The position numbers and the translations under genes are program-made. The notes beneath the pieces are model-generated. The model saw only the letters and a list, made by a program, of their open reading frames with translations. It made no database searches and was not told the origin of the DNA. From a virus (Duplodnaviria; Caudoviricetes), in the IMG/VR virus record IMGVR_UViG_3300008740_000043, positions 1 to 25,904 of that record: 25,904 bases of DNA; one strand, given 5' to 3'. Positions 3,516-23,218 of the stretch are shown in pieces; within the stretch, counting starts at the first letter, position 1, and every line of letters begins with the position of its first letter.

Positions 3516-3536
3516 GTAGGAATTTACCTATATCAC

Positions 3537-3544: not shown

Positions 3545-3762
3545 GTCATGTATCACAATTTTAGAATATTATGCTATATTATATATACTGATTAAGTATT
3601 ACTTAACTTTGGGCGGAGATATTGTACTGGAATTAAATCTCTATTCATAACCCTATAGGATATTCGAATCTATTTAATCATCACATTCATACCATTCATA
3701 CCATTGATATTAATGGTTAAGATTAATCATATTATTCTCTAAGTCTCACTCAAACGACAGCA

Positions 3763-4075: not shown

Positions 4076-4113
4076 TTTTTAAAAACCGAGAAAAAATCTC
4101 GAAAAATGGGCGG

Positions 4114-4269: not shown

Positions 4270-4329
4270 AGGATATATATACACTGGTATCTTATAAACC
4301 CAAGATATTATTCCTGCCCAAAAAAAAGG

Positions 4330-7379: not shown

Positions 7380-8783
7380 TTGGGGTTGGGTCATTTGCCT
7401 AAAGGACTAGCAGCAGAAGATACTAAGAAACTTATTCTAAGTGAAGTCGACTCTGACCAAACGGTAGTACCGCAACCATTTTGGTGTAAGAATAGTCTAT
7501 CTAAAAGACAAGACTGTTGTTTTTGGCATTTTGTAGGAAGTCCAGAACGTGATGATATATACCACCCTGTTTACGAATATGAGCAAATATTACTAGATGA
7601 ATTAGAAAAAGAGAAATGTCTAGCAGTATACAAAGCTACCGGGTTAGGTATTACTGAATTCATGATTAGATGGTTAGTATGGAAATCACTAACTGATGAT
7701 TTTTTCTTTGGTAAAGAAGCCATAATTATAACCGGACCGAATGTTGATTTGGCACAGGATATTATTAAAAGGGCTAAGGATTTAATCAGAGATAAGATAG
7801 ACTATCAGGACGCAGGGGTTTATGAGTTTATTGTAAATGGTAGTAGAATTAAATGTTATCCTTCAAACAACATTCACTCTGCTAGGGGTAAACCAAAAAT
7901 TTCTTGTTTCTTTGGAGACGAAGCAGCCTTCTTTAAAATTAGAGATGATAATATTGTAAGAACTGTAGGAGAACGTTACATTGGTAAATCAAACTCTTGG
8001 GTAGTTTGGGTATCTACAGCAGGAGAAGAAGCTGCAGGATTCTTTTTTGATATAATGGGAGAGAAAGATTCAATCTACAAGAAATTAGAGTTCTATTATG
8101 AATGGGGATTAAAGAAAGATAAGAAGACAAAGACAAGTGTATTCAATAAAGAGTTTATAGATTCTGCTATGGAAGCACGTTCCTTTGCTAGAGAATATTG
8201 CGGAGAGTGGGGTTCAAACTCTGGAGACATATTTAGTGCAGAAGCACTAGAAGGTGTATCTAATGATGATTATCCTATTAAACCAAACGACGATTCGTAT
8301 GACAGAGTAATGGCACTCGATCCCGGATTCAGTTCTTCAAACTTTGGAATAGTTATAGCACAAAGGTATAATAAGATACCACACATAATTTTTGCAGAAG
8401 ATTTTGAACGAACTTCATACACACAAATACTCTCAAAAATTAAAACGTTGGCTAAAAGCTATAAAATCAGGAAAATACGGGTTGACTCATCAAGACCCGA
8501 ATTAATTAAAGATTTGAGAGAATTAGGGTTTGATGTTGTTGGATTAAACTTTAGAGTATCAGGAAAAGAAATGACAGCAAACGCTTCAGAGAAAGTAGCA
8601 AAATTAGATGTTAGAATACACCCTACAATGAAGAGGTTGATATCTCAACTTATGACTATAAAATATAATACAAAGGGAACACCTGATAAGAACAACCATA
8701 ACCCATTCGATCTTGGAGACGCTTTTCTGATGTGTCTTTGGTACTACAAAATGGGTGGCGGTGTAGCCAAAGTGGTATATTAG
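7380..8783 (+). CDS. terL: Terminase large subunit
   Basis: Walker A-like YKATGLGITE, Walker B FFGDEAAF, motif III VST, FAREY, RNase H-like nuclease ALDPGF...DLGDA. Confidence 0.92.
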   Translation: MGLGHLPKGLAAEDTKKLILSEVDSDQTVVPQPFWCKNSLSKRQDCCFWHFVGSPERDDIYHPVYEYEQILLDELEKEKCLAVYKATGLGITEFMIRWLVWKSLTDDFFFGKEAIIITGPNVDLAQDIIKRAKDLIRDKIDYQDAGVYEFIVNGSRIKCYPSNNIHSARGKPKISCFFGDEAAFFKIRDDNIVRTVGERYIGKSNSWVVWVSTAGEEAAGFFFDIMGEKDSIYKKLEFYYEWGLKKDKKTKTSVFNKEFIDSAMEARSFAREYCGEWGSNSGDIFSAEALEGVSNDDYPIKPNDDSYDRVMALDPGFSSSNFGIVIAQRYNKIPHIIFAEDFERTSYTQILSKIKTLAKSYKIRKIRVDSSRPELIKDLRELGFDVVGLNFRVSGKEMTANASEKVAKLDVRIHPTMKRLISQLMTIKYNTKGTPDKNNHNPFDLGDAFLMCLWYYKMGGGVAKVVY

Positions 8784-8789
8784 TTCTCT
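8781..8789 (+). promoter_or_regulatory. Late-promoter motif copy (TAGTTCTCT)
   Basis: TTC core at 8784, 31 nt before ATG 8815. Confidence 0.7.
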
Positions 8790-8814
8790 TTTTGATTTAG
8801 ATTATACATACCGT

Positions 8815-9186
8815 ATGGTTTATTACCTTAAGTTAGACCAAAAAACATGGGGAGCAGGAGATTATGTTAATGATAATACTCTAGCCCTTACAGGTACAAT
8901 TTATAGTGATGAAGCACTATCTAGTGCAGTAAATATATCATCTTATACCCTTAAAATCAAGGTTTATCCTAAAGAAAGACCTGATTGGTATCAATTATCG
9001 GAAGACGCTGATATTGTATCAGGTTCAGATGGTACTTGGAGATATAAACCAACCATAAACAAACTAGACGACGCAGGATTATACAGAGTAGTTATTCAAC
9101 TATCTAAGACTGATGAAAGACTATCTGCAGTAGGTATAAAAGGATCAGATGAACTACTCGTAAGAAACGTGCCTACAATTACCTAA
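8815..9186 (+). CDS. Small beta-rich virion protein, BppU N-terminal/Ig-like
   Basis: Pattern GD...AVNISSYTLKI...IVSGSDGTWRY...LDDAGLYRVVIQL; has its own late motif. Confidence 0.55.
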   Translation: MVYYLKLDQKTWGAGDYVNDNTLALTGTIYSDEALSSAVNISSYTLKIKVYPKERPDWYQLSEDADIVSGSDGTWRYKPTINKLDDAGLYRVVIQLSKTDERLSAVGIKGSDELLVRNVPTIT

Positions 9187-9195
9187 TACTTCTCT
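9187..9195 (+). promoter_or_regulatory. Late-promoter motif copy (TACTTCTCT)
   Basis: TTC at 9190, 32 nt before TTG 9222. Confidence 0.75.
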
Positions 9196-9221
9196 AATTA
9201 ATTACCAACATTTATTGTTTA

Positions 9222-10547
9222 TTGGCAATATTTAAACCAAAAGTAACAGAGGGTAGAATAGCCGTTATTAACGAAGAGCATGGTAGTGCTTTGGTTAGAA
9301 GTTCTGATGGTGGATTTAGAGATTTTACATTTGAACCTGAAGTTAGTTTTGAAGACCTATTTTATACCAATGACCATGACGCTAGATTATCATTAGCATG
9401 TGATACTTATGTCCAACTTATCTTAGGTTCTGGATTAAAGATAAAAACTCAAAATGTCAAAGCAAAAAAGAAAATTGATAAATGGCTTAAAGTAACTCAA
9501 TTTGAACGTAAATTAGAAGACGCTACACATTCCCTAGTAGTAACAGGAAACGCTATTTTTGAGAAATTCCCAATGTATGCAGATTTAGTAGAAGTTGATA
9601 TTACAACAGTAAAAGAGATTGTTAGAGATGATCATGGTAAAGTAATAGAATATGTACAAGAGGTAGATGGTGTAGAAAATAGACTGAAACCTAAAGATAT
9701 ATGTCATTTCAAATTATCAAATAGGCATAGAGAGGTTTGGGGTAGAGGATTATTCCAATCTGTAGCCTCAAGAAGACTTATTGATGGTGTTTATGAACCA
9801 AGTCCAATAGAATCTATGTGGAAAGTAGAAAATGCTATGGTTAAGATTTTTGAGTCTTATGCTAGCCCTATGATGTTGATTCATTTCGCTGACGCAGGCG
9901 AACAATTCATAGAAAAACAAGCCGACGCATTTAAAAAGGCTAAACCGGGTGCAAAAATACTCACAGATAAGGAATTTGATGTAAAAGTATTCGAAGTTAA
10001 CCCTGCAAGCAAATTTGATAAATATATTGAGCATTTGCAGCAAGATGTGATAGAAGTCGGTTCACAATTCCCATTACAGATGTTTAACGCAGGATTTACA
10101 GCAAGAGCTTCTTCAGAAACAACCGATTCTGTCGTTTTAAGAAAGATTAAACGTATTCAAAGACGATTATCCGAGCAAATCAAGGTAGAAATCATTAATC
10201 CTATGCTAAAAATGAGTAAAATTGATCCAGATAAGGCAGATGTTAGCATTATTTTCGAAACAGAGAGTAAATTTGAGTTATCTGCTGATGATATTCAGAA
10301 ATTATTCGAAAAAGGAACGATTACAAGAGATGAAGTAAGAGGTTATCTCAAAAAGAATACAATTATTGACCTAGATGATGAAAAAGATGGAGATCAACCA
10401 CCAATTACAAGCGTTACACCAACAAACGACCTTCAAAATCAACAAATACCAACAGAATTTGATGAAAAACTAGAGGAATTGAAGGATTTAGTCAAAGAAA
10501 AGATACCAAAACCTCGTGGACGACCTAAAAAGTCTAGCATAGACTAA
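9222..10547 (+). CDS. Portal protein
   Basis: Position between TerL and the capsid gene, 441 aa, motifs LVVTGNAIFE, DICHFK, WGRGL; C-terminal KPRGRPKK. Confidence 0.88.
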   Translation: MAIFKPKVTEGRIAVINEEHGSALVRSSDGGFRDFTFEPEVSFEDLFYTNDHDARLSLACDTYVQLILGSGLKIKTQNVKAKKKIDKWLKVTQFERKLEDATHSLVVTGNAIFEKFPMYADLVEVDITTVKEIVRDDHGKVIEYVQEVDGVENRLKPKDICHFKLSNRHREVWGRGLFQSVASRRLIDGVYEPSPIESMWKVENAMVKIFESYASPMMLIHFADAGEQFIEKQADAFKKAKPGAKILTDKEFDVKVFEVNPASKFDKYIEHLQQDVIEVGSQFPLQMFNAGFTARASSETTDSVVLRKIKRIQRRLSEQIKVEIINPMLKMSKIDPDKADVSIIFETESKFELSADDIQKLFEKGTITRDEVRGYLKKNTIIDLDDEKDGDQPPITSVTPTNDLQNQQIPTEFDEKLEELKDLVKEKIPKPRGRPKKSSID

Positions 10548-10548
10548 T

Positions 10549-10577
10549 TACTTCTATTAATAATTAATAGTTATTAA
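10549..10577 (+). promoter_or_regulatory. Late-promoter motif (TACTTCTAT) overlapped by 21-bp palindrome copy 2
   Basis: TTC at 10552, 32 nt before ATG 10584; TTAATAATTAATAGTTATTAA at 10557-10577. Confidence 0.75.
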
Positions 10578-10583
10578 CATTTT

Positions 10584-12458
10584 ATGAAGAAAATTACAGG
10601 TTTACTAGCTTTACCTCGTATTTCTCGTAATGGTAATTTCTATTTTCCAGAAGAATTAGCAAAAGCAGATGGTAAAACAGTACCTTTGAGATGGAATCAT
10701 ATCCAAGACAACGAAGGTATCATTGGTACAGCAAAACTTATGTATGATGAGGAAAAAATGCAGATTAATTATGAAGCAACAGTAGAAAATGAAGCAATAG
10801 AATCACAATTAGGAAATAAAGAATTTAAAGTAAGTCTAGGCGCAGAACCACAGAAAGAAGAACGTATTTGTCATGATGAAGGTAAATGTTATAACGTTCC
10901 ATTAGGATTAAATTTTAAAGAAATGTCAATAGTAGAAACTCCGGGAATTCCTGAAGCTACTTTAGACGTTATTGAATACTTTACAACAGAATCAGTTAAG
11001 TTTGAAGAGTGTGATTGTGAAAATACTTCTAATAATACTTCCAATAAAGAAATAAGCATGGCAGAAGAAACCGAAACAAAGGTTACTGTAGATACAAAGG
11101 AAGTTCCTGCTGAAAAACCAGTAGAAGCACCTCAATGTCCTGAAGGTCAAACCTACAAGGACGGTAAATGTGTTCCAGAAGCACCAGCTCCAGAAGCTCC
11201 AAAAGCACCTGAAGCAGTTGTTCCTGCACCAACCGCTCAAGTAGCAGCACCTCAAGAAGATTGTGGTTGTTCTAAGGAAACTAAAGCAGAGGAAACCAAT
11301 GTTGAAACAGATATTAATGCAAAGGTTGAAGCCAAACTAGAATCCATTCAAGATGAGATTCGTGAGAACTATTCTCCAAAAGCAAAGGTTGAAGAAAACG
11401 CAGTTCCAAAAGGCTACGTTGAAGAAGGTGTTGACCAACAGGTCGAAGACCTCAAAAAAGTGCTAAAAGGAAACAGTGTTGTCATTGAAATTGACAAAGA
11501 GGACTTTTATCAAGCCCACACTGTAAAAGAAAACTCTCCTGTTACAGAAGCAGTTTCTACTTCAGGTACTATCCCAACCGTTTCTGCTCAAAGAGATATC
11601 ATTGTTCTACCGGGTGGCATTAGTGTCAAACCTGTAAGACAATGGACACAGTTCAAAGAGATTCCGCAAGGCAACGACAAAGTTCGTTTCTACAAGATTG
11701 ATATCCCTGCATTTGGCGATATCACTGAAGGTGGAAGCGACATTACTGCAAGCACCCATACTTTAACTAGTATTGATGTTGCAGCAGATACCCCTCGTGG
11801 TTTCCGTCAAGTAGTAAAGAAAACAGAGATTGAAAAATACCCAAGTGGTCTATTAGAAGCAATCCGTTCTACTGCAAGACTAAGAGCTATCCAAGACGAA
11901 GCAAGTATTATCTTGAAAGATATCGCAGCACCAGCTGCAGCAGCAAGTGGATATAACACTTTTGTTGCAGGCAAACATTTGAGAGCTGACACAGGCGCAA
12001 ACGTTGGATCAACATCTGACGAAGACGCAGCTGGAGAGTTCTTGAAAGAGGGTGTAGAGTTTGGTCGTCAAAAACTAGAAGAAGCAGGCTATGATGTAAG
12101 TCCGGGCAACGTTGTCTTGGCAATCACACCAAGAGCTTTTAGAACATTAATTTCTGATCCTGACATAGCAAGATTTGTACAAAACGGAGATCCTTCTATC
12201 TCACAACAAGGTAGATTGGAAAGATACTTAGGTGTCGATCTATTTGTTACAAACACACTACGAACTGCAAATAACTCTTACAGAAATGTAATGTGGGTTA
12301 AAGGCAAAGCTTTCGCAGTTGCTTCAGGAAGAAAACTCGAATTAGAGTTTGACAAGAACATTGATAACCAATCCGTTTCTGTAGTTGCAACACATAGAAC
12401 CAACGCAGGAATATTGGACAGCAACGCTTACGTTATCTTAAGTAGCAAACAAGATTAG
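10584..12458 (+). CDS. Prohead protease-scaffold-major capsid protein fusion (HK97 fold)
   Basis: N-terminal SRNGNFY, PLRWNH, VSLG and EMSIVETPG (phage prohead protease pattern); Pro/Ala/Glu-rich linker; C-terminal MCP-like region (TEG, AITPRAFRTL, GRLERYLGVDLFVTN). Confidence 0.88.
   Translation: MKKITGLLALPRISRNGNFYFPEELAKADGKTVPLRWNHIQDNEGIIGTAKLMYDEEKMQINYEATVENEAIESQLGNKEFKVSLGAEPQKEERICHDEGKCYNVPLGLNFKEMSIVETPGIPEATLDVIEYFTTESVKFEECDCENTSNNTSNKEISMAEETETKVTVDTKEVPAEKPVEAPQCPEGQTYKDGKCVPEAPAPEAPKAPEAVVPAPTAQVAAPQEDCGCSKETKAEETNVETDINAKVEAKLESIQDEIRENYSPKAKVEENAVPKGYVEEGVDQQVEDLKKVLKGNSVVIEIDKEDFYQAHTVKENSPVTEAVSTSGTIPTVSAQRDIIVLPGGISVKPVRQWTQFKEIPQGNDKVRFYKIDIPAFGDITEGGSDITASTHTLTSIDVAADTPRGFRQVVKKTEIEKYPSGLLEAIRSTARLRAIQDEASIILKDIAAPAAAASGYNTFVAGKHLRADTGANVGSTSDEDAAGEFLKEGVEFGRQKLEEAGYDVSPGNVVLAITPRAFRTLISDPDIARFVQNGDPSISQQGRLERYLGVDLFVTNTLRTANNSYRNVMWVKGKAFAVASGRKLELEFDKNIDNQSVSVVATHRTNAGILDSNAYVILSSKQD
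11024..11033 (+). promoter_or_regulatory. Internal late-promoter motif inside the capsid gene (TACTTCTAAT)
   Basis: TTC at 11027, 31 nt before the in-frame ATG 11058; 10/10 identical to the copy at 12734. Confidence 0.7.
11058..12458 (+). CDS. Nested in-frame scaffold-MCP isoform lacking the protease domain (466 aa)
   Basis: ATG 158 codons into the fusion gene (MAEETETKV), just after the protease domain, preceded by the late motif at the standard spacing. Confidence 0.65.
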   Translation: MAEETETKVTVDTKEVPAEKPVEAPQCPEGQTYKDGKCVPEAPAPEAPKAPEAVVPAPTAQVAAPQEDCGCSKETKAEETNVETDINAKVEAKLESIQDEIRENYSPKAKVEENAVPKGYVEEGVDQQVEDLKKVLKGNSVVIEIDKEDFYQAHTVKENSPVTEAVSTSGTIPTVSAQRDIIVLPGGISVKPVRQWTQFKEIPQGNDKVRFYKIDIPAFGDITEGGSDITASTHTLTSIDVAADTPRGFRQVVKKTEIEKYPSGLLEAIRSTARLRAIQDEASIILKDIAAPAAAASGYNTFVAGKHLRADTGANVGSTSDEDAAGEFLKEGVEFGRQKLEEAGYDVSPGNVVLAITPRAFRTLISDPDIARFVQNGDPSISQQGRLERYLGVDLFVTNTLRTANNSYRNVMWVKGKAFAVASGRKLELEFDKNIDNQSVSVVATHRTNAGILDSNAYVILSSKQD

Positions 12459-12481
12459 TCAATAAGGTTAGACTAGTAAAT

Positions 12482-12490
12482 AACTTCCCT
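12482..12490 (+). promoter_or_regulatory. Late-promoter motif copy (AACTTCCCT)
   Basis: TTC at 12485, 32 nt before ATG 12517. Confidence 0.7.
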
Positions 12491-12516
12491 TATCTTTTTA
12501 TTATTTAAACTAAACA

Positions 12517-12729
12517 ATGGTAGATATTGAAGATCGTCTTTTTCAACGAATCGACAAGTTCGAAGAACGTTTAGATGATACATGTAATCGTATTGAGAAG
12601 ATTGACGCATATATCACATTAGAAAGAGAAAACTCTGAACGAAAATTTAATAAGGCAGTAGGCGTACTAGGCACAATTATTGGTGCTGTAGGATTATTCA
12701 GTATAATGGACTACTTACCTAGCATTTAA
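12517..12729 (+). CDS. Coiled-coil plus C-terminal TM protein (XhlA/holin-accessory-like)
   Basis: Charged heptad N-terminus, then hydrophobic AVGVLGTIIGAVGLFSIM. Confidence 0.7.
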   Translation: MVDIEDRLFQRIDKFEERLDDTCNRIEKIDAYITLERENSERKFNKAVGVLGTIIGAVGLFSIMDYLPSI

Positions 12730-12733
12730 ATAT

Positions 12734-12743
12734 TACTTCTAAT
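12734..12743 (+). promoter_or_regulatory. Late-promoter motif copy (TACTTCTAAT)
   Basis: TTC at 12737, 32 nt before ATG 12769. Confidence 0.72.
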
Positions 12744-12768
12744 TTGATAGAATCATGGGGGTTTTGAT

Positions 12769-12927
12769 ATGTGGACAACAAGATATGTAGGAATCATTTC
12801 TTATGGTTTGATCTCTGCACTGTTAGTTGCAAAAGACATTGTAAAAGATGTTGAGGGAGCAGTTATATTACTTGCACCTGTAGCAGCATTTATAGTAGCA
12901 GATCAAATTAAACATAGAAACGAATAG
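12769..12927 (+). CDS. Small two-TM holin-like membrane protein (52 aa), not in the ORF track
   Basis: MWTTRYVGIISYGLISALLVAKDIVKDVEGAVILLAPVAAFIVADQIKHRNE*; two hydrophobic segments, charged tail, own late motif. Confidence 0.75.
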   Translation: MWTTRYVGIISYGLISALLVAKDIVKDVEGAVILLAPVAAFIVADQIKHRNE

Positions 12928-12930
12928 ACT

Positions 12931-12944
12931 GCTTTTATATAAAA
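12931..12944 (+). promoter_or_regulatory. Canonical archaeal TATA box of the metalloprotease gene
   Basis: GCTTTTATATAAAA, with the TATA element starting about 27 nt upstream of ATG 12961; no WASTTC motif. Confidence 0.6.
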
Positions 12945-12960
12945 AATTTAGGTATATAAT

Positions 12961-13791
12961 ATGGAATACCTATACATTCTCCTTTTTTTCTTAGCATTTG
13001 CTATGGTTGGACTAATGATTGGTGTAACTATGGAAGCTGCTTTTGCAGATTATTTTGACGCAGTAAATATTAGATATAATGACAATCCTGTAACTTGTAT
13101 ATTTGAACCCGAATATGATGAAGATTATTTTAATTCAAACCAACTTAATGCAGTATTCACAGGTGTGAAGGAATGGGAAAACACATTAACTAGAGCAACG
13201 GGTGGAGATTGGTATATCCCAATTTATGTATATGAATGGGAAGATCATGTAGATAAAGAAGTTCATGATTTTATGAATTGTGATATTTTTATAACATTTG
13301 AAGAACATAATGATGGTAAGATTGTAAACAACAGTGCATTAGGATTTAATTATTTTAATCATAGTTGGTCAAAACACAAATATTCACATATAGTAGTATT
13401 CTCAAATACAATAGATAAAGAATCACTTAATATTGATTTGGGTGTAATACAAGATGGAGATCATATAGAAATAGTATTAAAATCAGTTAGAGTGCCTGAT
13501 TCTGATATTCATCATATAGTAAAACATGAGTATGGACATGCAGTAGGATTACTACACCATTGGAATACAGATAAATCAAACGAAATTAAGAGTGTAATGC
13601 ACCCTGTTTTTGATCCATTTACAGATTTTTATATGGAAATACAACCTAGAGATGTATATGGAATAGTTCAACTATATGGAGAAGACGGGTGGGGTAAACC
13701 AAATCCCTTATTTGTAGGTAAAAAAATAGAAAGTTTGGAATGGTTTATTCCAAAGATTGACGTACTTGACGTAAGAGTATTGTTGCAATAA
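12961..13791 (+). CDS. Membrane-anchored or secreted metzincin (matrixin/M10-like) zinc metalloprotease
   Basis: HEYGHAVGLLH (HExxHxxGxxH), Met-turn SVMHP, D-x-x-G-I-x-x-L-Y-G terminal helix, N-terminal hydrophobic signal. Confidence 0.9.
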   Translation: MEYLYILLFFLAFAMVGLMIGVTMEAAFADYFDAVNIRYNDNPVTCIFEPEYDEDYFNSNQLNAVFTGVKEWENTLTRATGGDWYIPIYVYEWEDHVDKEVHDFMNCDIFITFEEHNDGKIVNNSALGFNYFNHSWSKHKYSHIVVFSNTIDKESLNIDLGVIQDGDHIEIVLKSVRVPDSDIHHIVKHEYGHAVGLLHHWNTDKSNEIKSVMHPVFDPFTDFYMEIQPRDVYGIVQLYGEDGWGKPNPLFVGKKIESLEWFIPKIDVLDVRVLLQ

Positions 13792-13885
13792 AATCAAATT
13801 CTTCCATAAAATCGCCTGTTTTATACACATATCTTTCCATATCTCCTAGCCATTTTATGTTGTTTTGTTGTAATAAAATTTGCAT
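13745..13885 (-). CDS. Putative small antisense-oriented protein (46 aa), not in the ORF track
   Basis: MQILLQQNNIKWLGDMERYVYKTGDFMEEFDFIATILLRQVRQSLE*; ATCTTTATAT with TTTATA at -30..-25, the same string as the 6815 promoter. Confidence 0.45.
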   Translation of the reverse strand: MQILLQQNNIKWLGDMERYVYKTGDFMEEFDFIATILLRQVRQSLE

Positions 13886-13894
13886 AACTTCTCT
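13886..13894 (+). promoter_or_regulatory. Late-promoter motif copy (AACTTCTCT)
   Basis: TTC at 13889, 34 nt before ATG 13923. Confidence 0.65.
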
Positions 13895-13922
13895 TTATAT
13901 AATCCCTAATATAAAGATGTAT

Positions 13923-14243
13923 ATGGTATATGGAGATTCAGCAGAAGTTCAGAAGCTAGTTTGGGGGAATGTAAAGTCTTCAACCCCTGCAAACGTAGCA
14001 AGTGCTTTACAGGTGGCTACAACTAAGATTAATTCAGTATTAAATTTACAAACAGATATGAGTTCAGTTCCAGAAAGGATTAAAACTATAGCAGAATTAT
14101 ATGCAGCAGGACTTATCCAAGAAGCAAGGACAGGTCGAGAATCCACTTTTACTAAACAGGCTATGGAAGTCTTACTAGCAGTACGAGATCAACAAATTCC
14201 TACTCAAGAGGGTAATTGGGGAAATGTTAGGTTCGTGTGGTAG
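13923..14243 (+). CDS. Probable head-tail adaptor (SPP1 gp15/HK97 gp6/Mu gp36-like)
   Basis: About 106 aa, N-terminal MVYGDSAEVQ, helical ATTKINSVL and VPERIKTIA; position after the head genes; start reassigned using the late motif. Confidence 0.65.
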   Translation: MVYGDSAEVQKLVWGNVKSSTPANVASALQVATTKINSVLNLQTDMSSVPERIKTIAELYAAGLIQEARTGRESTFTKQAMEVLLAVRDQQIPTQEGNWGNVRFVW

Positions 14244-14285
14244 TGAGGAAGAAGAAAGACCGGAATGGGATTGGTTGAAAAGAAA

Positions 14286-14375
14286 ATGAAATGTGAAATA
14301 TGTGGAAATAATATAACTGATGATGGAAACAATCAATATGAGGATCACTTGATGTGGCATGACCGTAACGATTAG
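14286..14375 (+). CDS. C2H2-like Zn-finger microprotein (29 aa), not in the ORF track
   Basis: MKCEICGNNITDDGNNQYEDHLMWHDRND*; CxxC-x14-HxxxH; fills the gap between the adaptor and terminator genes. Confidence 0.5.
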   Translation: MKCEICGNNITDDGNNQYEDHLMWHDRND

Positions 14376-14874
14376 AAATCTAAGTGGTGCAAGAGAAAAC
14401 TTTGATAAAGTTCTTGACTATCATTTAACAAACGATTGGACTTCAGGTAACACAGGGGGGGTTACACCTGATATAGAAAATGGAACTGATGATCCTGACT
14501 TTATGGCTAGACAGGATATAACAGGTGCAAATAAAATTTTTATCAACGTCGTTAGTAGAGCAAGAAGTTCTGATTCTGAAAATGATCCAAACGGAGATGG
14601 TTCACATGAATGGAGAACTGAAGTTTCAGTTGATGTTTGGGCAGAGGATTTAGAAACTTTGGGTTTATTTGAAGATGAAGTTAATCGTATAGTTTGGGAA
14701 AGAGCTCCTGATAATTCTACAAGATTAGTTAAATCAAACGGAGCTAACAGTGAGGCACAATTTTTTGAAAACACTGAATTAGAATTTAACCGTATTGAAC
14801 CTGAAGGAGAATTAGACACCAATCCTAGTAGTCAAGGATTCTTGATTATAGTATGGTATAAGGATAAATCATAG
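14359..14874 (+). CDS. Probable tail terminator/completion protein
   Basis: Acidic 171 aa directly upstream of the tail tube; VSVDVWA strand followed by helix LFEDEVNRIV. Confidence 0.6.
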   Translation: MTVTIRNLSGARENFDKVLDYHLTNDWTSGNTGGVTPDIENGTDDPDFMARQDITGANKIFINVVSRARSSDSENDPNGDGSHEWRTEVSVDVWAEDLETLGLFEDEVNRIVWERAPDNSTRLVKSNGANSEAQFFENTELEFNRIEPEGELDTNPSSQGFLIIVWYKDKS

Positions 14875-14875
14875 A

Positions 14876-14884
14876 TACTTCTCT
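14876..14884 (+). promoter_or_regulatory. Late-promoter motif copy (TACTTCTCT)
   Basis: TTC at 14879, 32 nt before ATG 14911. Confidence 0.75.
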
Positions 14885-14910
14885 TTATTATTTTAATCTA
14901 AGGGTTTACT

Positions 14911-15825
14911 ATGGTAACGGCACATAATATCACTACTAAGAAAGATATTGTAAAACCACTACAGTATATTCAAGAAACAACTAACACATTAACTACACCA
15001 ACTGCATACGGAACTACACCAACATCTAGTCCTACATTTGTAGCAGCAGGACTTAACACAGAAATCACATTAAACCCAGATGTTGTACACCAAGATGTTG
15101 ACGTTCTAGGATCAGAAGATGTTGTTGACGCTGTAAAAACAGGAGAATTATATACATTTACAACAAGATTTAATCCAACAGATTCAGTATTACTAAATTA
15201 CGGTTTAGTATCTGGAGCAGGAACAGGAACTATTGACGCTTCACTATCATTCATATTTTCAGAGAAATTAGATAACACAGAATATTTCACTATTTTAAAA
15301 GGTTGTTTACCAACTTCTACAACTCTATCATTAGAGAGAGGAACTTGGAACGCAGATATGACTTGGATTTGTAAAGAAATCACAACCCCTGCAACCTCAC
15401 ATGGTTTAACTAACCCAACATTTGTATCAATTCCTACAGCAAGTCCATTAACTCACACTGACGCAGGATCTGACCCTTTCACATGGAACTCTGTAGCAAC
15501 ACCTGAAAGAAGATTCTCAACAACTGTAACAAGAGAAACATCTGTCCTATCAGTAAACGGAGAAGATAAAATTACTTATGCAAAACCAACCTCAAGAAGA
15601 ATTGAGTTCAGTGTTGACGCATTTGTAAAGAATACGACATTCATGACTGACTTTAAAGCAAAGACAGCAAGAGCAGCAACATACAAATTCTCATCTAGTC
15701 CAAGCAAGACTTTAACCTACTCAAATTGTGTAATCACAGGTTGGTCAAGTGCTAGAAGTGCAACTACAACTGACGCATTTGTAGAAAGCGTTAATGTAAG
15801 AGCAGAAGGCTTAACCATAGCATAA
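14911..15825 (+). CDS. Major tail tube protein
   Basis: Thr/Ser-rich beta protein of 304 aa, N-terminal YIQET...YGTTP, immediately upstream of the frameshifting chaperone gene. Confidence 0.78.
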   Translation: MVTAHNITTKKDIVKPLQYIQETTNTLTTPTAYGTTPTSSPTFVAAGLNTEITLNPDVVHQDVDVLGSEDVVDAVKTGELYTFTTRFNPTDSVLLNYGLVSGAGTGTIDASLSFIFSEKLDNTEYFTILKGCLPTSTTLSLERGTWNADMTWICKEITTPATSHGLTNPTFVSIPTASPLTHTDAGSDPFTWNSVATPERRFSTTVTRETSVLSVNGEDKITYAKPTSRRIEFSVDAFVKNTTFMTDFKAKTARAATYKFSSSPSKTLTYSNCVITGWSSARSATTTDAFVESVNVRAEGLTIA

Positions 15826-15838
15826 GGCTTATAAAGGC

Positions 15839-15859
15839 TTAATAATTATTAGTTATTAA
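15839..15859. promoter_or_regulatory. 21-bp palindromic operator-like site, copy 3
   Basis: TTAATAATTATTAGTTATTAA (1 central mismatch) between TTATAAA (15829-15835) and ATG 15859. Confidence 0.55.
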
Positions 15860-16224
15860 TGGAAGTTGATTTAGAAAACGGCAAGGTTATTGTCCGCGAC
15901 GACCTCATTTATGAGTTTAGAGAATTAGTAACACGTAAAGATTTACAAGTAATAAGGGATCTTAGAAAAAAACACTCTGAATTAGAAGAGAAAGGTGTTG
16001 AGAGTATATCACAAGATGATATGGAAAAACTCGAAGATGAATGGTATAACACAGTATTACCACTAGGATTAAAAGACTTTAAAAAAGATGATATAGATAA
16101 TCTCACAGAAGGGGAATTAAGAGAATTAGCAGCTTCTACGTTTGTTTTTTTAACAAAATTTGGGTCGACCGCTTTGGCGAAGCAGTTCGCTATTGCTACG
16201 AAGGAGATCCAAAAGAACGACTAG
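15859..16224 (+). CDS. Tail assembly chaperone (lambda gpG-like)
   Basis: Acidic 121 aa after the tail tube; contains the slippery T TTT TTA at 16146-16152. Confidence 0.78.
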   Translation: MEVDLENGKVIVRDDLIYEFRELVTRKDLQVIRDLRKKHSELEEKGVESISQDDMEKLEDEWYNTVLPLGLKDFKKDDIDNLTEGELRELAASTFVFLTKFGSTALAKQFAIATKEIQKND

Positions 16225-16424
16225 AGGCGTTCAAAGACTTTCCTGAACTAAAGAATATAGTCTTAATTCTTAACTCTATCAATCTAGGTTTTGGGAGCTT
16301 ACGTGATGTATTAGACATTAAAGACAAATATGGCGAAAAATTCCTTACTGAATTAGGCACAGTTCAAAAAATCATAAATACTTTACAAGAACAAGATAGT
16401 CGTAATTCACATAGAGTTGGCTAG
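15859..16424 (+). CDS. Tail assembly chaperone -1 frameshift product (gpGT-like, about 188 aa)
   Basis: The -1 frame is open from the slippery site to TAG 16422-16424 (NKIWVDRFGEAVRYCYEG...SHRVG*) and fills the gap to the next gene. Confidence 0.78.
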
Positions 16425-17055
16425 CGGAATTAAATGGACAGGAATTAAAGAGTATAAGCAAAAGCTTATGTCATTACAGAAAGCAAAGACACGTTATGAG
16501 AAAGAATATCTTAAAATTTTAGAAAATTTAACATTAAAAATGATTAAACAGGCTGCTCCTAAAGATACAGGAGAGTATGCTAACTCATGGACAGTTGTTC
16601 AGAGGGGTGCAAAGTTTATTGTTATAGATACAAGCATGCCTGATTTATTTAATTGGTTAGAGAATGGTACTAGACCACATAAAATTAGAGCAAAATCAAC
16701 AGATTTTCTGTCTTTTGGCGGAATATTCAGAAAGGAAGTAGATCACATGGGTACACAACCACGACCACATATTATACATGTAGTAAATCAACTAGATAAA
16801 ATTATGAAAGATGTCATGCACGTTCAGATGAGGAAACATAACAGATTATTTAATCATATTTCAACAACAGGTGGTGTACCAAAAACCTCAAACCTTACAA
16901 AAACCGTAGGTCTTACAGGAACTAAAGTTTCTAGCCTTCGAGGAAGGGGTAAAATCACAATGGTTAGGGCTAGAACAGGTAGAAAACAGTTCAAAAGAAG
17001 ACTTGGAAGACGTAGAAGAACAGGTCAATGGATTAAAAGAGCTCAAGCAAATTAG
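16417..17055 (+). CDS. HK97 gp10-like neck/tail-completion protein with an Arg-rich C-terminal extension
   Basis: APKDTGEYANSW, WLENGTRPHKI and HMGTQPRPHI motifs. Confidence 0.78.
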   Translation: MASGIKWTGIKEYKQKLMSLQKAKTRYEKEYLKILENLTLKMIKQAAPKDTGEYANSWTVVQRGAKFIVIDTSMPDLFNWLENGTRPHKIRAKSTDFLSFGGIFRKEVDHMGTQPRPHIIHVVNQLDKIMKDVMHVQMRKHNRLFNHISTTGGVPKTSNLTKTVGLTGTKVSSLRGRGKITMVRARTGRKQFKRRLGRRRRTGQWIKRAQAN

Positions 17056-17061
17056 TTCCCT
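17053..17061 (+). promoter_or_regulatory. Late-promoter motif copy (TAGTTCCCT)
   Basis: TTC at 17056, 31 nt before ATG 17087. Confidence 0.7.
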
Positions 17062-17086
17062 TTATGATTAGTGAGTAGTAATATAC

Positions 17087-18184
17087 ATGGCACGTAACGA
17101 GATTTCTAGGCTAACAATATCCATAGATATTGATAAAGCAACAGGTAAAATTGTATCTTTTAATCAAAAGATTGGAGAAACTGAACGTAAAGTTAGATCA
17201 GCAGGAAATGCCATGCAACAAACAGGCACACAAGCTGGTCGTATGGGAGATCAAGCAGCAGCAGGCGCAGTTGGCTTTCAAACTATGGCACAGGGTATGC
17301 TTAACGTTACAACTTCAGCAGCCCAAACTTATACCTCATTTACAAACTTAGCTTCAGCAGAACACAGAGTAGCAACTGCACATATTGGTGTGGCAAGAGC
17401 TCAAGATTTACTTAATGCTAAACAATTAAGATATGATGAATTAGTAGCAAAAGGTTTAGGAAACTCACAAAAAGCATTAAACTTACAAAATGAATTAAGA
17501 ACCGCAACAGCAGATCATACAGCAAAATTAGAAAAACTTAGAATTGAAAAATCAAAACTTAATGATGTTTATATATTATTTGGTGTTAACTTATTAAACG
17601 TAGCAGTATCATTAGGTACTACAATATCTGCTATGAAAATGGCAGGGATTGGTACAGCGGGTTTAACTGCTGCACAAAAAGGATTGAATTGGCAAACAAC
17701 AGGTTTGTTATCAAAAACAGCCATGATACCCGCAGTAATGACAGCAGCAGGCAGAGCTGAACTCGCAAAAGCGTTTGCTACAAGAACATTAACTGGTGCA
17801 GTTAGAGGTTTGTATTTAGCACTCGGTCCGGTGGGTTGGGCAATAGCTGGTGTAACTACATTATTAGCAACATGGGATATGCACTTAGGTAAAGTCTTTG
17901 GTTCATTAGATGAGATAGGCAGAGGAATATTCGGAATGTCCGACGCATTAGAAGAAGTTGAATCTGAATTAAATACAACAACTGACGCAGTAACAGGTTT
18001 AGATTCATCATTAAAATCTACAGCAGATACAATGAAAAACCAAATACCTGACGGTACTAGAGTCATGGTAAAAGGATTACAAAATGCAATAGATAATGCT
18101 GAAACTTTCCAACAAAAATTATCATTAATTAGAACACAAGCAGAGATACTTAAAAGTTCAGGCGTACTGGCGGATTTTCGTTAG
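17087..18184 (+). CDS. Tape measure protein, short (zero-frame) form
   Basis: Ala/Gln/Thr-rich helical protein with N-terminal LTISID strand, coiled coils and hydrophobic LGPVGWAIAGV segment. Confidence 0.82.
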   Translation: MARNEISRLTISIDIDKATGKIVSFNQKIGETERKVRSAGNAMQQTGTQAGRMGDQAAAGAVGFQTMAQGMLNVTTSAAQTYTSFTNLASAEHRVATAHIGVARAQDLLNAKQLRYDELVAKGLGNSQKALNLQNELRTATADHTAKLEKLRIEKSKLNDVYILFGVNLLNVAVSLGTTISAMKMAGIGTAGLTAAQKGLNWQTTGLLSKTAMIPAVMTAAGRAELAKAFATRTLTGAVRGLYLALGPVGWAIAGVTTLLATWDMHLGKVFGSLDEIGRGIFGMSDALEEVESELNTTTDAVTGLDSSLKSTADTMKNQIPDGTRVMVKGLQNAIDNAETFQQKLSLIRTQAEILKSSGVLADFR

Positions 18185-19791
18185 GGGGCTTAACTAGCCC
18201 CCAAGCAGTAACAGGAACAAGTCCTGCAGGATTTGCAACAGGTTCAACAGGTGGTGGTGTACAAGTACCATCAGAACAAGGTGTACCACAAACAGCAAAA
18301 CCACAAGCAGCACCAACTTCAAGTCCAACTACTTCAGCTCCAACTGCTATATCTGCAAGAGGCGGTGGTGTAGTAAAACCTGTTACAGAACAAGAAGGCG
18401 AAAAACTAAAACAAAAATCACAAGGATTCACATTCACATCAGATACAACATTTTCAAGTGCTGTAATGCAAGGTGTGGACGCAAAACAAAAAAGTGTAGT
18501 CTTTGATCCTTCTACATTAGGTACACAACCACAACAACAACCAACACCTGACTTGAACGCATTTATGGCTATGGCAGATCCATTTACTGCTCAAGGACTT
18601 GCAATTTACGATTCAATGGGAAATAAAGAAAAGACAAAAATATTAGAATCTAAAATATCACAATATAAAGAATCCGACCCTGCTTTAGCACAAAGATACT
18701 TTGACGTTTTAACACAAGTTGTAGCAGAAGAAGTGTTAACACCAAAACAAAAAGAAGAGTTCAAACTTGCTAAAAAAGGATTAAACTTTGGAATAACAAC
18801 TGCTTTCGGAAGGCTACCTAGTGCAATACATGATGGTGTAATAAGTACAGAACTTCTTCAAGATAAATATAAGAAATCAGGTGTAGCACAATTACAACAA
18901 GCCATGATGTTACAACGTGGTACTAATGCAATAAACAAAGAACAACAACTTAGATTCAAAGCAATTACAGAAGGTGGTAAGGTTGTGGAAAAAGGCGGAA
19001 ATCTATACCTTGAAACCAGCTTAGGTCGCGAGTTATTACCCGTTGGAGATGTTATAACAGAACAAGAACAATATTGGGATCCTATATCACAAACAATGAA
19101 AACAAGACAAGTTAACATACCAATTTCAGCATTTAAAGCACGAGAAGAAGAAGCAAGAAAAAGACAACTTGCGTTTGGAGATTCAAGAGGTGTATTAGGT
19201 GGTGGAATATCATTCCAACAAGAACTGTTAGCAGCAGGCGTAGGTGGTGCAGCAAACTTGGCAGTATCACAAGGTCAATCATATTACAGAAATGTTGTGT
19301 ATGGAGAAGCTACAGGTGCTATGGCAAGAAGTCATGCAGCAGCACAAGCATTAGGTAGAGCAACTTGGAACAAAGAACAAAACCAAAATAGAACAGTGAG
19401 AACAGGTGGTAATGGACATGGAATTGTTGCAAGATATAGAGGTGTTGCCATAACAGAAGAAGATCATGCAGCGTTTGAATCATTAGCAAATTCACATAAT
19501 TCTCAAGTTTCAAATTATGGTAGAGAAGCGTTTGATAGAGGCAGGGATATACATTTAGGTTGGCTTGTAAAACAAACAGAAAACAATGCAAGAGCATTAG
19601 CAGCAAGTATATCAGCTAGGATTGCAGCAGAGGAAGCAAAAGTGAAACAATTTAGAGATCAAGGATTAGGTTTATCACAACAAGAAGCATTGAAAGTTTT
19701 AAGAGATAAAGCACAAGGAGAACAAACACTTTCTGATATGTTATTATTTCAACTAAGACTTGAAGCACAAAGTACGGGGGTTGTAACTTGA
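17087..19791 (+). CDS. Tape measure protein, long -1 frameshift form (about 901 aa); includes ORF 18466..19791
   Basis: The -1 frame is stop-free from 18154 to 19791; 18181-18465 encodes a protein-like G/S/T/P/Q linker with genome-typical codons and no ATG. Confidence 0.72.
18172..18202 (+). other. Putative programmed -1 ribosomal frameshift signal
   Basis: G GAT TTT heptamer (18172-18178) in the correct phase, 5-nt spacer, then stem-loop GGGGGCT-TAACT-AGCCCCC (18184-18202). Confidence 0.75.
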
Positions 19792-21485
19792 GCTTAACAC
19801 CAAATTACGATATTAATCCTCTTAGTCCTAAGATTATCATAACTGATAGAACAGGAACGGAGAAATACAGATATGAAACAACAGTAACAACCGCTTCTGT
19901 ATCTCCACAACAGGACTTTACATTATCAGAACTACAAATACATAGTGGTATAAACAGTGATTATGGATATGCAATATTAAAGATAGATGATAGAGATAAT
20001 AACCTTACTGATACAACTACAAAGCTTAGGGATTCAAAGATTGAAAGACAGTGGGATATTCAGATTTATCTAGGTAAATCACAACCTTTACTTCAGCGAT
20101 ATTTTTATGGTAAGATTTATGATGTTGATATTCAAAGACCATTTACAAATAGGCAAACATTAATCATAACTTGTATTGGTTGGGGTGTAACATTAAGGGA
20201 TAGAATTACAAATATTAAGCGTTTTCAGGGAAAGGCAGCAGATGGGGTAACTGTAGATAATACAAATACCACAACCAAAGTAAGTGAATTGGTAAAACAA
20301 GTAGTTACAGATAATGATCATCAGGCAGATCATGGTCTTACAAATGATGATTTAGGTATAACAACAACGGGTGTTAAAGATGTAGATGTTAAACTACCTG
20401 ACTTACAGAAAAATTTTGCAACGTATGCAACAGTTCTATCAGAATTATCATCTAGTGGTAATGTAATGTATGGTGTTGACCCAGATAGAGATTTATTCTT
20501 AAGAGATCCAAACAGTGTGGATTCTGGATTCTTATTTACAAACGACTTGAGTTCATCAGTATCACAAAATTGGGATTCATCAAGAATTGGATATTTAATA
20601 AACGCTAGTCAATCATGGAGAGATTCATCTTATGATGGTGCATATTCTTTCTTACATGGATTAGGTGCAAACACTGTAAAAATAGACACTTCAAAGGTTG
20701 GTTCAGAAAATGCAACGAGGGCTTCAAACGTATCATGGATTGGAATACCATTTACGCCTACAACAGATAATATTGGTAAGATAGCATTAAAGATAGCAAA
20801 AACAGGAACTCCTACTTCCCCTGCAACAATTCAGATTACAGGTATTGATACATCAAATAATAAACCAAAGGTGGATAATTTAAGGAAAAGTATTGTCCTT
20901 GACAGTAAAAGAATACAAGGATTAACAACAAGTGGTGCTTGGGAAGAAATATCATTAGATGAAAAGATTAACGTAGAACCAAACACACCGTTAATGATAG
21001 TTGTTAACCAATATGGAGACGGTAGTAATAACTTTACAATGGATTATCAAACAGGTACAGGTACATTTTATACTTCATCAGATGGAGATACTTGGTCAAG
21101 TGCAACAGGTAGTTTCTCATTTAGAGATTATTCACAAAAAGCCTTACATATTATTCTTGAAAATACTAGGGCAAAGGCAAAATATGGTGTAAGAGAGAAG
21201 GTGGTTAACTTTAATGCGGGTCAAGAAGAAGGTTCTGCAAGAGAAGCGTTAATCAATGCAGGAGAGGTATTAGGTTTAGAAAGAAGGCATTATTCTCAAG
21301 TTACGGTGTCTCCACCAACACTTAGAGTACCACTTGGTCAATTCTGTCGTGTTGTTGACAGTCAAACAGGCTTAAATGTAAAGGCTTCAATTATATCAAT
21401 GGATATACATATGGCTTCTAAATCAGGAATAACTTCTGTTGGGGCAGATCAGGTAATATTAGGATTAGAGGAAGTGCATTATTAG
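19788..21485 (+). CDS. Tail tip/baseplate hub protein with an inserted beta-sandwich domain
   Basis: Follows the TMP; hub-like motifs IQIYLG, FYGKIYDV, ITCIGW, YGVDPDRDLF, KYGVREKV; insert IPFTPTTDNIGKIALKIAKTGTP. Confidence 0.7.
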   Translation: MSLTPNYDINPLSPKIIITDRTGTEKYRYETTVTTASVSPQQDFTLSELQIHSGINSDYGYAILKIDDRDNNLTDTTTKLRDSKIERQWDIQIYLGKSQPLLQRYFYGKIYDVDIQRPFTNRQTLIITCIGWGVTLRDRITNIKRFQGKAADGVTVDNTNTTTKVSELVKQVVTDNDHQADHGLTNDDLGITTTGVKDVDVKLPDLQKNFATYATVLSELSSSGNVMYGVDPDRDLFLRDPNSVDSGFLFTNDLSSSVSQNWDSSRIGYLINASQSWRDSSYDGAYSFLHGLGANTVKIDTSKVGSENATRASNVSWIGIPFTPTTDNIGKIALKIAKTGTPTSPATIQITGIDTSNNKPKVDNLRKSIVLDSKRIQGLTTSGAWEEISLDEKINVEPNTPLMIVVNQYGDGSNNFTMDYQTGTGTFYTSSDGDTWSSATGSFSFRDYSQKALHIILENTRAKAKYGVREKVVNFNAGQEEGSAREALINAGEVLGLERRHYSQVTVSPPTLRVPLGQFCRVVDSQTGLNVKASIISMDIHMASKSGITSVGADQVILGLEEVHY

Positions 21486-22574
21486 ATGAGTATAGACATT
21501 AATAATTATATCAGAAGTGGAAAGTCAACCGATAGACAAACCATAAATAAAATACTGGAAGCCCTTCAGGCAGCAAATCCAGAAGTAGAGCAAGACTCTT
21601 TACAAGAAAAAATTGCATTTAGTCCTGAAATCAGAGATAGAACGTTAACGGATAATTCAGGTGGAGCTGATTCACTAGGTTCACTAACTAAGGATAGAGA
21701 TGATTTTACATTTACTTTAACTCCGGGTTCAAAATCAGCATATCCTGTAACTAATACAACTACAGGAACTATAACATTCCCGTTGACAGATTTAAAGTTT
21801 GGAGCAGAGGGAGTTTTTGACGGAAATACATACATTACTATACCACATAATACTGCACTATCTCCACAAGACGCAAACTTTGGAATGATATTTTGGTTTA
21901 AATCATCACAACAGGGTGGAGCAATATATTCAAAATCAAACATAACAGATTCTGATCCAGATTATGATTCAGATGATTATCTAGCAGCAGATTACTTACA
22001 AGTTCAACCGGCAGAATCGGGAATGGAAGTTATAATAAATCCTGCACAGAATGATAATTTCTCATCAGCAGATTTTGACACAGATAATTTTTCAACATCA
22101 AATGTTCAGAACAGTGTATATGTGGAAATTGAAGATGGAACTGACACAGTATCATTAGACGCTACAACTGCAACTAACATATTTGACGGTAATTGGCACA
22201 GTATATGCGTAAATAGTACGGTGTTATCTGATCCAGATTATTTGGCAGCAAACTATGACGCAGATGATTATGAAACAGTAGTAACAGGAAGTGAGGTTTT
22301 GGAGATATTCTTGGATAAGGTATCATTAGGTAGCACTTCTTCAGCAGTAATAGATAATTTAGATACAACCGTAAACGCTATGATTGGAGCAGATAAATCT
22401 GGAACTAGAACTTTACAGGGTTCATTGGCACATTGGTTCTTTGAATCTAAACCACTATCAACTGCAGAAATAGCCAATTTTCATGATAATGCTAGAATGA
22501 CCACTAAAAATCAACTAAATGCAATCCAATTTATCACAAATGAAGCCGTAAGTGTTAATGATGAGGTTTATTAA
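21486..22574 (+). CDS. LamG/concanavalin A-like minor tail protein with acidic repeats
   Basis: KFG...FDGNTYITIP, IFWFKS, DGNWHSI, IFLDKV and LSTAEIA typical of LamG domains. Confidence 0.72.
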   Translation: MSIDINNYIRSGKSTDRQTINKILEALQAANPEVEQDSLQEKIAFSPEIRDRTLTDNSGGADSLGSLTKDRDDFTFTLTPGSKSAYPVTNTTTGTITFPLTDLKFGAEGVFDGNTYITIPHNTALSPQDANFGMIFWFKSSQQGGAIYSKSNITDSDPDYDSDDYLAADYLQVQPAESGMEVIINPAQNDNFSSADFDTDNFSTSNVQNSVYVEIEDGTDTVSLDATTATNIFDGNWHSICVNSTVLSDPDYLAANYDADDYETVVTGSEVLEIFLDKVSLGSTSSAVIDNLDTTVNAMIGADKSGTRTLQGSLAHWFFESKPLSTAEIANFHDNARMTTKNQLNAIQFITNEAVSVNDEVY

Positions 22575-22583
22575 TACTTCTCT
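22575..22583 (+). promoter_or_regulatory. Late-promoter motif copy (TACTTCTCT)
   Basis: TTC at 22578, 32 nt before ATG 22610. Confidence 0.75.
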
Positions 22584-22609
22584 TTTTAATTTATATGGGA
22601 TAATACATT

Positions 22610-23218
22610 ATGGTCTTTGATACTATTTCAGGGGATTCGGCTTCTACAAGTACCAAATTCGGTGGTACTGCATTAAACAAAATTGGTAATTGGTTAAACG
22701 GTGGTGGTTCAGAAATTGCCTATATTAAAGATGATGATATTGTAATTACAGATCCTTCAACTACAACTAAACGAGTAAGAATAGACGCAGGCACAGTTAG
22801 TGCTTCACAAACTAGAGTATTGAATATGCCTGACAGAGATGTTCATGCTAACGTATTTAATGAAGTCATATTATTGGCTTGTTCAGATGAGACTTCTGAC
22901 CTCACAGTTGGTACAGGAAAAGTTTCGTTCCGTATGCCTTTCGCTATGACAGTAACAGGTGTAAGTGCTTCATGTCAAACAGCTCCCGTAGGAAGTACGA
23001 TTATTGTAGATATTAACGAAGCAGGATCAACCATACTTTCAACAAAATTATCGATTGACGCTTCAGAAAAAACTTCAACCACAGCAGCAAGTGCAGCAGT
23101 CATATCTGATACTGCTTTAGCTTCTGACGCAGAAATAACTGTTGACATTGATCAGATTGGATCATCTACAGCAGGAAAAGGACTTAAAGTAAAGATAGAA
23201 GGATATAGGACTGCTTAA
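22610..23218 (+). CDS. Tail fibre-associated virion protein
   Basis: Ser/Thr/Ala-rich; C-terminal beta-sandwich FRMPFAMTVTGVSAS...TAPVG...IIVDIN...ITVDIDQIGS...GLKV. Confidence 0.65.
   Translation: MVFDTISGDSASTSTKFGGTALNKIGNWLNGGGSEIAYIKDDDIVITDPSTTTKRVRIDAGTVSASQTRVLNMPDRDVHANVFNEVILLACSDETSDLTVGTGKVSFRMPFAMTVTGVSASCQTAPVGSTIIVDINEAGSTILSTKLSIDASEKTSTTAASAAVISDTALASDAEITVDIDQIGSSTAGKGLKVKIEGYRTA

Follow-up and report, generated by a model that had tools for sequence, protein, structure and literature searches.

A TACTTC word at fixed distance before virion genes, a probable late promoter element in tailed viruses related to Nvie-Pro1

How archaeal tailed viruses without an RNA polymerase of their own time the expression of their virion genes is an open question. 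In the available sections of a review, regulation in archaeal viruses comprises promoters with a TATA box and a B recognition element (BRE), repressors, and one motif in downstream position (PMC5569661). The locus analysed here, a stretch of 25,904 nucleotides (nt) of viral DNA (IMG/VR record IMGVR_UViG_3300008740_000043; hereafter the window), raises the question in a concrete form, with a short word, (A/T)TACTTC(T/C), recurring at nearly constant distance in front of its virion genes. We conclude that this element is real, family-wide and apparently undescribed, and that its probable kind is that of a viral late promoter. It is very probably a promoter element and, given that, late timing is likely. 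With moderate confidence we read it as a core promoter element specific to the virus, serving virion mRNAs that are predicted to be leaderless and are likely late, and recognised by a sequence-specific reader that the virus itself encodes.

The right two-thirds of the window harbor genes for a terminase, a portal protein, a capsid-domain protein of 624 amino acids (aa), a tail tube protein, an HK97-gp10-like protein and further tail proteins. The 624-aa protein shows 36% identity to the protease/major capsid protein of Nvie-Pro1 and 41% to a prohead protease of a Yangshan Harbor Nitrososphaeria virus. By homology, the window thus belongs to a tailed virus related to these two, and it shares with them the fused protease-capsid gene along with homologous portal, terminase and tail genes. 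A 34.7-kb record with an identical 624-aa gene also codes for an MCM helicase. Because of these homologies and the helicase, the host is probably an ammonia-oxidising archaeon; a small zinc-finger family of these viruses, mostly found in Nitrososphaerota, gives a further hint by homology. The only genome match was a 9-kb contig of the same virus family (L084) inside a bacterial (Neomarinimicrobiota) metagenome-assembled genome, where it is probably mis-binned.

A preliminary description of the window had listed ten copies of the motif WASTTCYMW (IUPAC code) before structural genes, and all ten distances from the TTC core to the start codon proved exact (Table 1). The raw number of matches by itself barely exceeds chance and says little, with 19 on both strands compared to 12.4 +/- 3.4 in shuffled sequences (at least 19 in 3 of 100 shuffles), and was dropped as evidence. 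The signal in the window is positional, not numerical: of the 12 matches on the plus strand, ten are followed by a real start at 31-34 nt, and those at 3781 and 11036 are not. The binomial probability for this arrangement (2e-22) is inflated, the motif having been defined on the same sites. For a fairer test, a matrix was built from 94 sites in relatives, including close ones; all ten sites were among the 15 positions on both strands scoring above 9 bits. The doubtful starts at 9222 (a TTG codon), 12769 and 13923 are backed by orthologues. In two copies, a G is present (8781, 17053) and the motif overlaps an upstream TAG stop; the form ACTTC is that of the marine viruses.

For the family-wide test, 79 loci were reduced to 26 at <85% protease-capsid identity (368 kb). 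When the 266 plus-strand WACTTCY sites in these loci were paired with in-frame ATG codons, 139 pairs lay at 31-35 nt (72, 34, 10, 14 and 9 for the successive distances) and 64 at the other 51 distances. Not a single ATG pairing at 31-35 nt was found for the 173 minus-strand sites. Variants with G, A or T for the first C showed no spacing peak in the marine set. The third base follows the virus clade, being C in the marine viruses and G or A in Nvie-Pro1 and in the genome G011. In Nvie-Pro1 (FR725450, 53% GC), ASTTCY stands 31-35 nt before 10 of the 28 starts on the plus strand and AATTCY before a further three, and in G011 the element precedes about four genes only. No loci were recovered when the Nvie-Pro1 protein alone was used for scanning.

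Gene classes were counted with a slightly looser pattern in 12 genomes, of which the window and G001 represent the same virus and G007 and G010 nearly so. This pattern precedes the portal gene and the tail tube gene in all 12 genomes, the protease-capsid gene in 11 and 12 of the 14 tape-measure frames, the two extra frames being split halves. For the conserved non-virion clusters 14, 15 and 17, the counts are 1/9, 0/10 and 0/8. The element is restricted to virion genes. The preliminary description had gone further in assigning the motif to structural genes and plain TTTATA boxes to non-structural ones; the restriction stands, but the split is not strict. The likely tail assembly chaperone gene at 15859 lies in the structural block and has a plain TATA box in 8 of 10 orthologues, and the virion genes terL, 14359, 19788, 21486 and 23220 carry neither element, each abutting the preceding gene. 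TATA-like boxes are located 27-31 nt before 3515, 4269, a probable start near 6812, 12961 and 15859. Both promoter classes were repeated in G012, a held-out genome fetched later.

The anatomy of the element was derived from 140 gene-start sites selected by the pattern ACTTC. They read (A)(A/T)T-ACTTC-T, followed by a weak WTTWAT. Measured from the start codons, a canonical TATA box (TTWWAW) stands behind 16 of the 140 gene-start sites and none of 28 internal sites, and the BRE slot is occupied by WTACTTC and not by a purine-rich BRE. In genes that lack the motif, TATA boxes peak with the first T at 28-30 nt, and in host-type loci the peak is at 30 nt. With TTC at 31-32 nt, the hexamer spans about -34 to -29 and thereby covers the BRE slot plus 1-3 bases at the start of the ordinary TATA slot. 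This geometry agrees with BRE and TATA at -35 to -27 as given in the available text on haloarchaea (PMC2151090). An alternative BRE and a TATA replacement are therefore inseparable from the present positions, and the best reading is an element that lies across the BRE and reaches into the TATA slot at its 5′ edge. Of the earlier proposal of a pyrimidine-rich alternative BRE, the virus-specific, start-anchored and promoter-like character holds, but the label is too narrow for a hexamer that also covers this edge. In gaps of at least 50 nt, 50 sites hold 31-35 nt to the start with 15-853 nt to the upstream stop; the motif tracks the start, not the upstream stop. Shine-Dalgarno-like words occur in 8 of 119 motif genes versus 31 of 67 coupled genes. 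These rare sites, and a promoter-like word abutting the start at fixed distance, make leaderless mRNAs probable, as had been suggested at the outset.

The predicted nested promoter inside the protease-capsid gene is the sharpest part of the finding. In an alignment of 33 sequences, the linker between the protease and capsid domains is otherwise unalignable, yet a Thr-Ser pair is kept shortly before a Met. At the DNA level, ACTTC stands 31 or 34 nt before the internal ATG in 72 of 72 distinct complete protease-capsid genes, both values being allowed by codon phase; 9 of 101 loci had no complete frame by the filter and were left out, L185 among these being read by hand. The linker pair is encoded by ACT-TCY in 26 of 26 cases, as against 5 of 26 for an invariant Thr-Ser of the capsid domain and 12 of 97 for other Thr-Ser pairs. 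At the same place, Nvie-Pro1 has AGTTCT (Ser-Ser) and G011 has AATTCT (Asn-Ser), each at 34 nt. Because of this codon control and the other amino acids in Nvie-Pro1 and G011, comparison of the genes indicates that the internal word is conserved at the nucleotide level, with its distance to a start fixed and no stop nearby. The predicted nested product would begin at Met159 of the fusion frame.

RNA data consisted of assembled metatranscriptome contigs, with no infection time course among the runs found. In run X4, a contig from a related strain has its first base at the internal ATG (11058) and no loose end, and the upstream contig stops at 11043. One low-depth contig of run X1 starts at 14911, the tail tube ATG. 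Both are weak hints, as strain branching can also end contigs. In run X9, of unrecorded type, a contig crosses the 11058 region. The X4 depths (75 upstream, 6849 from 11058) are per-contig figures from runs found by these words and were left unused for gene ranking, and the missing coverage of the protease part in X1-X3 was given no weight as evidence.

Read as a mechanism, a factor would bind at about -34 to -29, compensate for the degenerate TATA box and place host TBP, TFB and RNA polymerase such that transcription would begin at the start codon or 0-4 nt before it. Motif promoters would stay silent until the factor, itself expressed from a TATA promoter of the ordinary type, had been produced. 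From the internal copy a second mRNA would arise, encoding scaffold and capsid without the protease, and one open frame could thus supply much capsid protein and little protease-capsid fusion. A more specific version is put forward tentatively, namely that a protein of the virus' own, neither TBP nor TFB, recognises TACTTC where a strong TATA box would otherwise stand, drives a late programme and, through the internal copy, sets the capsid-to-protease ratio by transcription. Such a dedicated reader would give these archaeal viruses a late switch comparable to those of the herpesvirus or T4 type.

Candidates for a viral reader were sought among the non-virion genes, two of which are widely kept: one for a protein of ~350 aa and one for a small zinc finger. 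The first protein is helical and rich in Cys and His, is encoded outside the window (G001 2751-3797), and is present in G001-G008 and G012 and was not found in the incomplete genomes G009 and G010. It has 73 homologues and 41 profile hits; its structural model has a predicted local distance difference test (pLDDT) of 76 and a predicted template-modelling score (pTM) of 0.38. A 257-aa protein of G011, encoded just before the terminase genes, matches it weakly (expectation value E 5e-4; profile-profile 72%, E 3e-5, over 65 columns). The ~350-aa protein is our best candidate for the factor, as a lead only. The zinc finger of 64-80 aa, found in nine genomes and G011, was not found in the complete genome G012 and was therefore ranked lower. 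For gene 1 of Nvie-Pro1 (L083 1353-2245), a start upstream of the annotated one, in a different frame, is possible; the gene sits where G011 has the 257-aa protein, which includes a conserved helix-turn-helix-like stretch, and the link between the two is not significant.

A viral rather than a host reader is somewhat favoured because the element is nearly absent from a host sample and differs in its third base between virus clades. The sample comprises 80 redundant soil-type loci, the 10-kb flanks of one cobalamin gene (886 kb). A TATA box precedes 42 of its 775 open reading frames and the motif at 31-35 nt only one, and none of 460 WACTTCY sites shows start-linked spacing. The main rival keeps the same promoter element and has it read by the host, through a TFB paralogue or an activator that infection or stress would induce. 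Several TFBs are present in ammonia-oxidising archaea. Searches for TFB, TBP and the TFB zinc ribbon gave no match over cut-off in ten viral genomes (one scrap, E 0.449), and neither of the readers proposed in the preliminary description is supported by this check. Nvie-Pro1 keeps the motif, yet significantly shares only virion genes with the marine viruses and is described in the available text as lacking replication genes (PMC6563490). Sections of a study on the virus HFTV1 report that TFB copies differ in expression during infection (10.64898/2026.09.13.751334), and Sta1 is a known host activator of viral promoters according to the part of PMC1635249 at hand. Against host recognition stand the host counts, the clade-dependent third base and the host amo promoters, which have an ordinary TATA box and BRE in the accessible text of PMC3379541. 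On balance, a host reader appears rather unlikely.

For the preferred reading, a virus-encoded factor at late leaderless promoters, the lack of TFB and TBP matches and the restricted sharing with Nvie-Pro1 count as points against, and several others add to them. The ~350-aa candidate has no Pfam, PHROG or Atlas match and no PDB sequence match (best E 0.12), its folds gave nothing in Foldseek at E<=0.001 and a best Z of 5.8, within noise, in VIA-align, and its similarity to the first gene of Nvie-Pro1 is not significant (E 0.26-0.51). The host sample is soil-type and limited to the flanks of one gene, so a small host regulon is possible. In run X1, from another study, cover starts at 11081, 23 nt inside the nested frame, and run X8 has no cover on 10880-11260; the exact start at 11058 is seen in one study only, and contigs break at strain branches. 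Finally, spacing was measured to start codons, and both the transcription starts and the late timing are predicted.

A different kind of explanation places the signal in RNA, as a terminator of the upstream gene or as a site that directs cutting of the transcript ~31 nt downstream to yield leaderless mRNAs. Most copies are indeed only a few nt away from the upstream stop, those of Nvie-Pro1 are often followed by T-runs, and cutting with unequal stability could also yield a contig starting at 11058. The spacing, however, is fixed to the start and free of the stop in the 50 long-gap cases, runs of five T stand behind only 10 of the 140 gene-start and none of the 28 internal sites, the internal copy has no preceding stop, and the distance is that of archaeal promoters. 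We regard an RNA-level signal as improbable, and the earlier argument against a terminator, drawn from the internal copy, is upheld.

Even less probable is an operator by which a repressor would keep virion genes off until late over weak host-type promoters. The AT-rich stretch behind the motif would fit, and the archaeal viral repressors F55 and SvtR bind over BRE and start sites according to the available sections of PMC5569661. However, a canonical TATA box to be repressed is the exception behind gene-start sites and missing behind internal ones, and the strict orientation and 5-nt spacing window of a non-palindromic word suit a positioning role. Chance, or constraint at the protein level (from Asn-Thr-Ser in the linker and from stop codons where gaps are short), for which the near-chance raw count and the two overlaps with TAG stops could be cited, is refuted by the sharp one-strand spacing peak, the codon control and the other amino acids that carry the word in Nvie-Pro1 and G011, and retains a negligible probability.

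Several known systems resemble the proposed late promoter in part. Archaeal leaderless promoters with BRE and TATA have the same distance to the start codon, no Shine-Dalgarno sequence and an AT-rich stretch at about -27 to -22 in the accessible parts of studies on haloarchaea (PMC2151090) and amo genes (PMC3379541), and this type is also used by the non-virion genes of the present virus. In contrast to the purine-rich haloarchaeal BRE (CGAAA in the available text of PMC2151090), the element is a pyrimidine-rich ACTTC that extends over the TATA slot's 5′ edge, with a degenerate TATA box behind it. The GTC motif of SIRV1 and SIRV2, considered together with the host activator Sta1, is likewise a virus-specific cis element in archaeal viral promoters (sections of PMC5569661 and PMC1635249). 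According to the former, most promoters have it downstream of a clear TATA box, whereas the element described here lies upstream, next to a weak TATA box, and at virion genes only. Late promoters of beta- and gammaherpesviruses, with a modified TATA box (TATTWAA) and a viral pre-initiation complex, are also tiny, their only clear element being a non-canonical word at the TATA position of structural genes; they serve eukaryotic Pol II with a six-protein viral complex in the part of PMC6541308 available, whereas no such reader was found here, and homology is not implied.

Nested protease/scaffold genes such as lambda C/Nu3, those of HSV-1 (herpes simplex virus 1) and HFTV1 gp17/gp17.5 also give a protease-less product from an in-frame internal start (available text of 10.64898/2026.09.13.751334). 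For HFTV1, the same text reports a translational bias and no motif found by its authors, whereas an invariant promoter-like word at 31 or 34 nt is found here. Another difference is that the nested product here includes the capsid protein. UL26.5 of HSV-1 has its own promoter. Nvie-Pro1 also resembles the present virus, with its fused protease-capsid gene, the same virion gene set and the element as AGTTCT or AATTCT at 31-35 nt. The words 'promoter' and 'motif' are absent from the main text, as available, of PMC6563490 and of 10.1101/2025.08.23.671958, the latter mentioning TFII-like genes in another virus family. No description of the element was found in the literature covered, outside of which lay figures and supplements (e.g. 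the promoter alignments of PMC3379541).

With the element defined and found family-wide, a primary 5′ end is predicted at the internal ATG of the protease-capsid gene, and the nested promoter would account for capsid protein made from a single fused frame. Gene starts in these genomes can be corrected by means of the element. Since Nvie-Pro1 has both a cultured host and the element, the prediction is testable there, and the outcome bears on whether Nvie-Pro1 is a provirus or a gene transfer agent.

Table 1. Motif copies, contrasting TATA boxes and neighbouring genes in the window (TTC/start: first base of the TTC core and of the start codon, distance in brackets).
Feature	Position	Strand	TTC/start (nt)	Remarks
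Ordinary TATA box (contrast class, left arm)	4291..4298	-		29 nt before ATG 4269
Terminase large subunit (terL)	7380..8783	+		PHROG 9 E 2.5e-9, Pfam Terminase_6N; without motif
Motif copy TAGTTCTCT	8781..8789	+	8784/8815 (31)	Overlaps terL stop; motif before 7/11 orthologues
Motif copy	9187..9195	+	9190/9222 (32)	Before portal TTG; 12/12 portal genes
Portal protein	9222..10547	+		PHROG 9232 E 6e-14; TTG start
Motif copy	10549..10557	+	10552/10584 (32)	Before protease-capsid start; 11/12 genomes
Prohead protease fused through a linker to the major capsid protein (624 aa)	10584..12458	+		PHROG 267 on residues 363-622
Internal motif copy	11024..11032	+	11027/11058 (31)	Inside protease-capsid frame, before in-frame ATG
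Second internal match	11036..11044	+		19 nt before ATG 11058; out of register, probably non-functional copy
Nested in-frame protease-less product (predicted), scaffold/linker + capsid, 466 aa	11058..12458	+		Conserved internal Met
Motif copy	12482..12490	+	12485/12517 (32)	8/8 orthologues
Motif copy	12734..12742	+	12737/12769 (32)	4/7 orthologues
Ordinary TATA box (contrast class)	12933..12942	+		Before M10-peptidase-like gene 12961
Motif copy	13886..13894	+	13889/13923 (34)	Followed by canonical TTTATATA
Motif copy	14876..14884	+	14879/14911 (32)	Before tail tube gene; 12/12 genomes
Tail tube protein	14911..15825	+		Pfam Phage_tube_2 E 0.0015, under cut-off; profile match to Nvie-Pro1 major tail protein
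Ordinary TATA box (contrast class, within structural block)	15828..15835	+		Before likely tail assembly chaperone 15859
Degenerate copy TACTTTA	16379..16385	+		35 nt before HK97-gp10-like gene 16417; ACTTCG in some relatives
Motif copy TAGTTCCCT	17053..17061	+	17056/17087 (31)	Overlaps upstream stop; before tape measure gene
Tape measure protein, 5′ part (split in window)	17087..18184	+		Clusters with Nvie-Pro1 tape measure
Motif copy	22575..22583	+	22578/22610 (32)	Before tail-region gene

Further features of the window concern its coding capacity. The tape measure gene (17087-19791) is broken near 18180 into two frames, likewise in G001, and forms one frame of 833-962 aa in nine relatives; a programmed or a strain-specific frameshift is possible. 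The region of the likely tail assembly chaperone gene (15859-16424) includes a T-run near 16142-16151 with a shifted frame open to about 16424, an arrangement like the lambda G/GT frameshift, and the downstream frame is kept in relatives. The M10-like metallopeptidase gene (12961-13791) has its own TATA box and lies within the head-tail block in five genomes.

On the minus strand, a gene pair at 907-2940 without Pfam match occurs together in six genomes; its first member starts with Met-Cys like a class II glutamine amidotransferase, and the second may be an amidoligase. A Mom-family DNA modification gene (4420-5019, minus strand; Pfam E 4e-43) is found in some relatives only. The non-coding stretch 3760-4110, with GC-rich words, repeated GGTAC/GTACC, GCGCGC and the one out-of-context motif match at 3781, is possibly an origin or genome-end region. 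The run of ~56 C at the contig start (1-56) is probably an assembly artefact.

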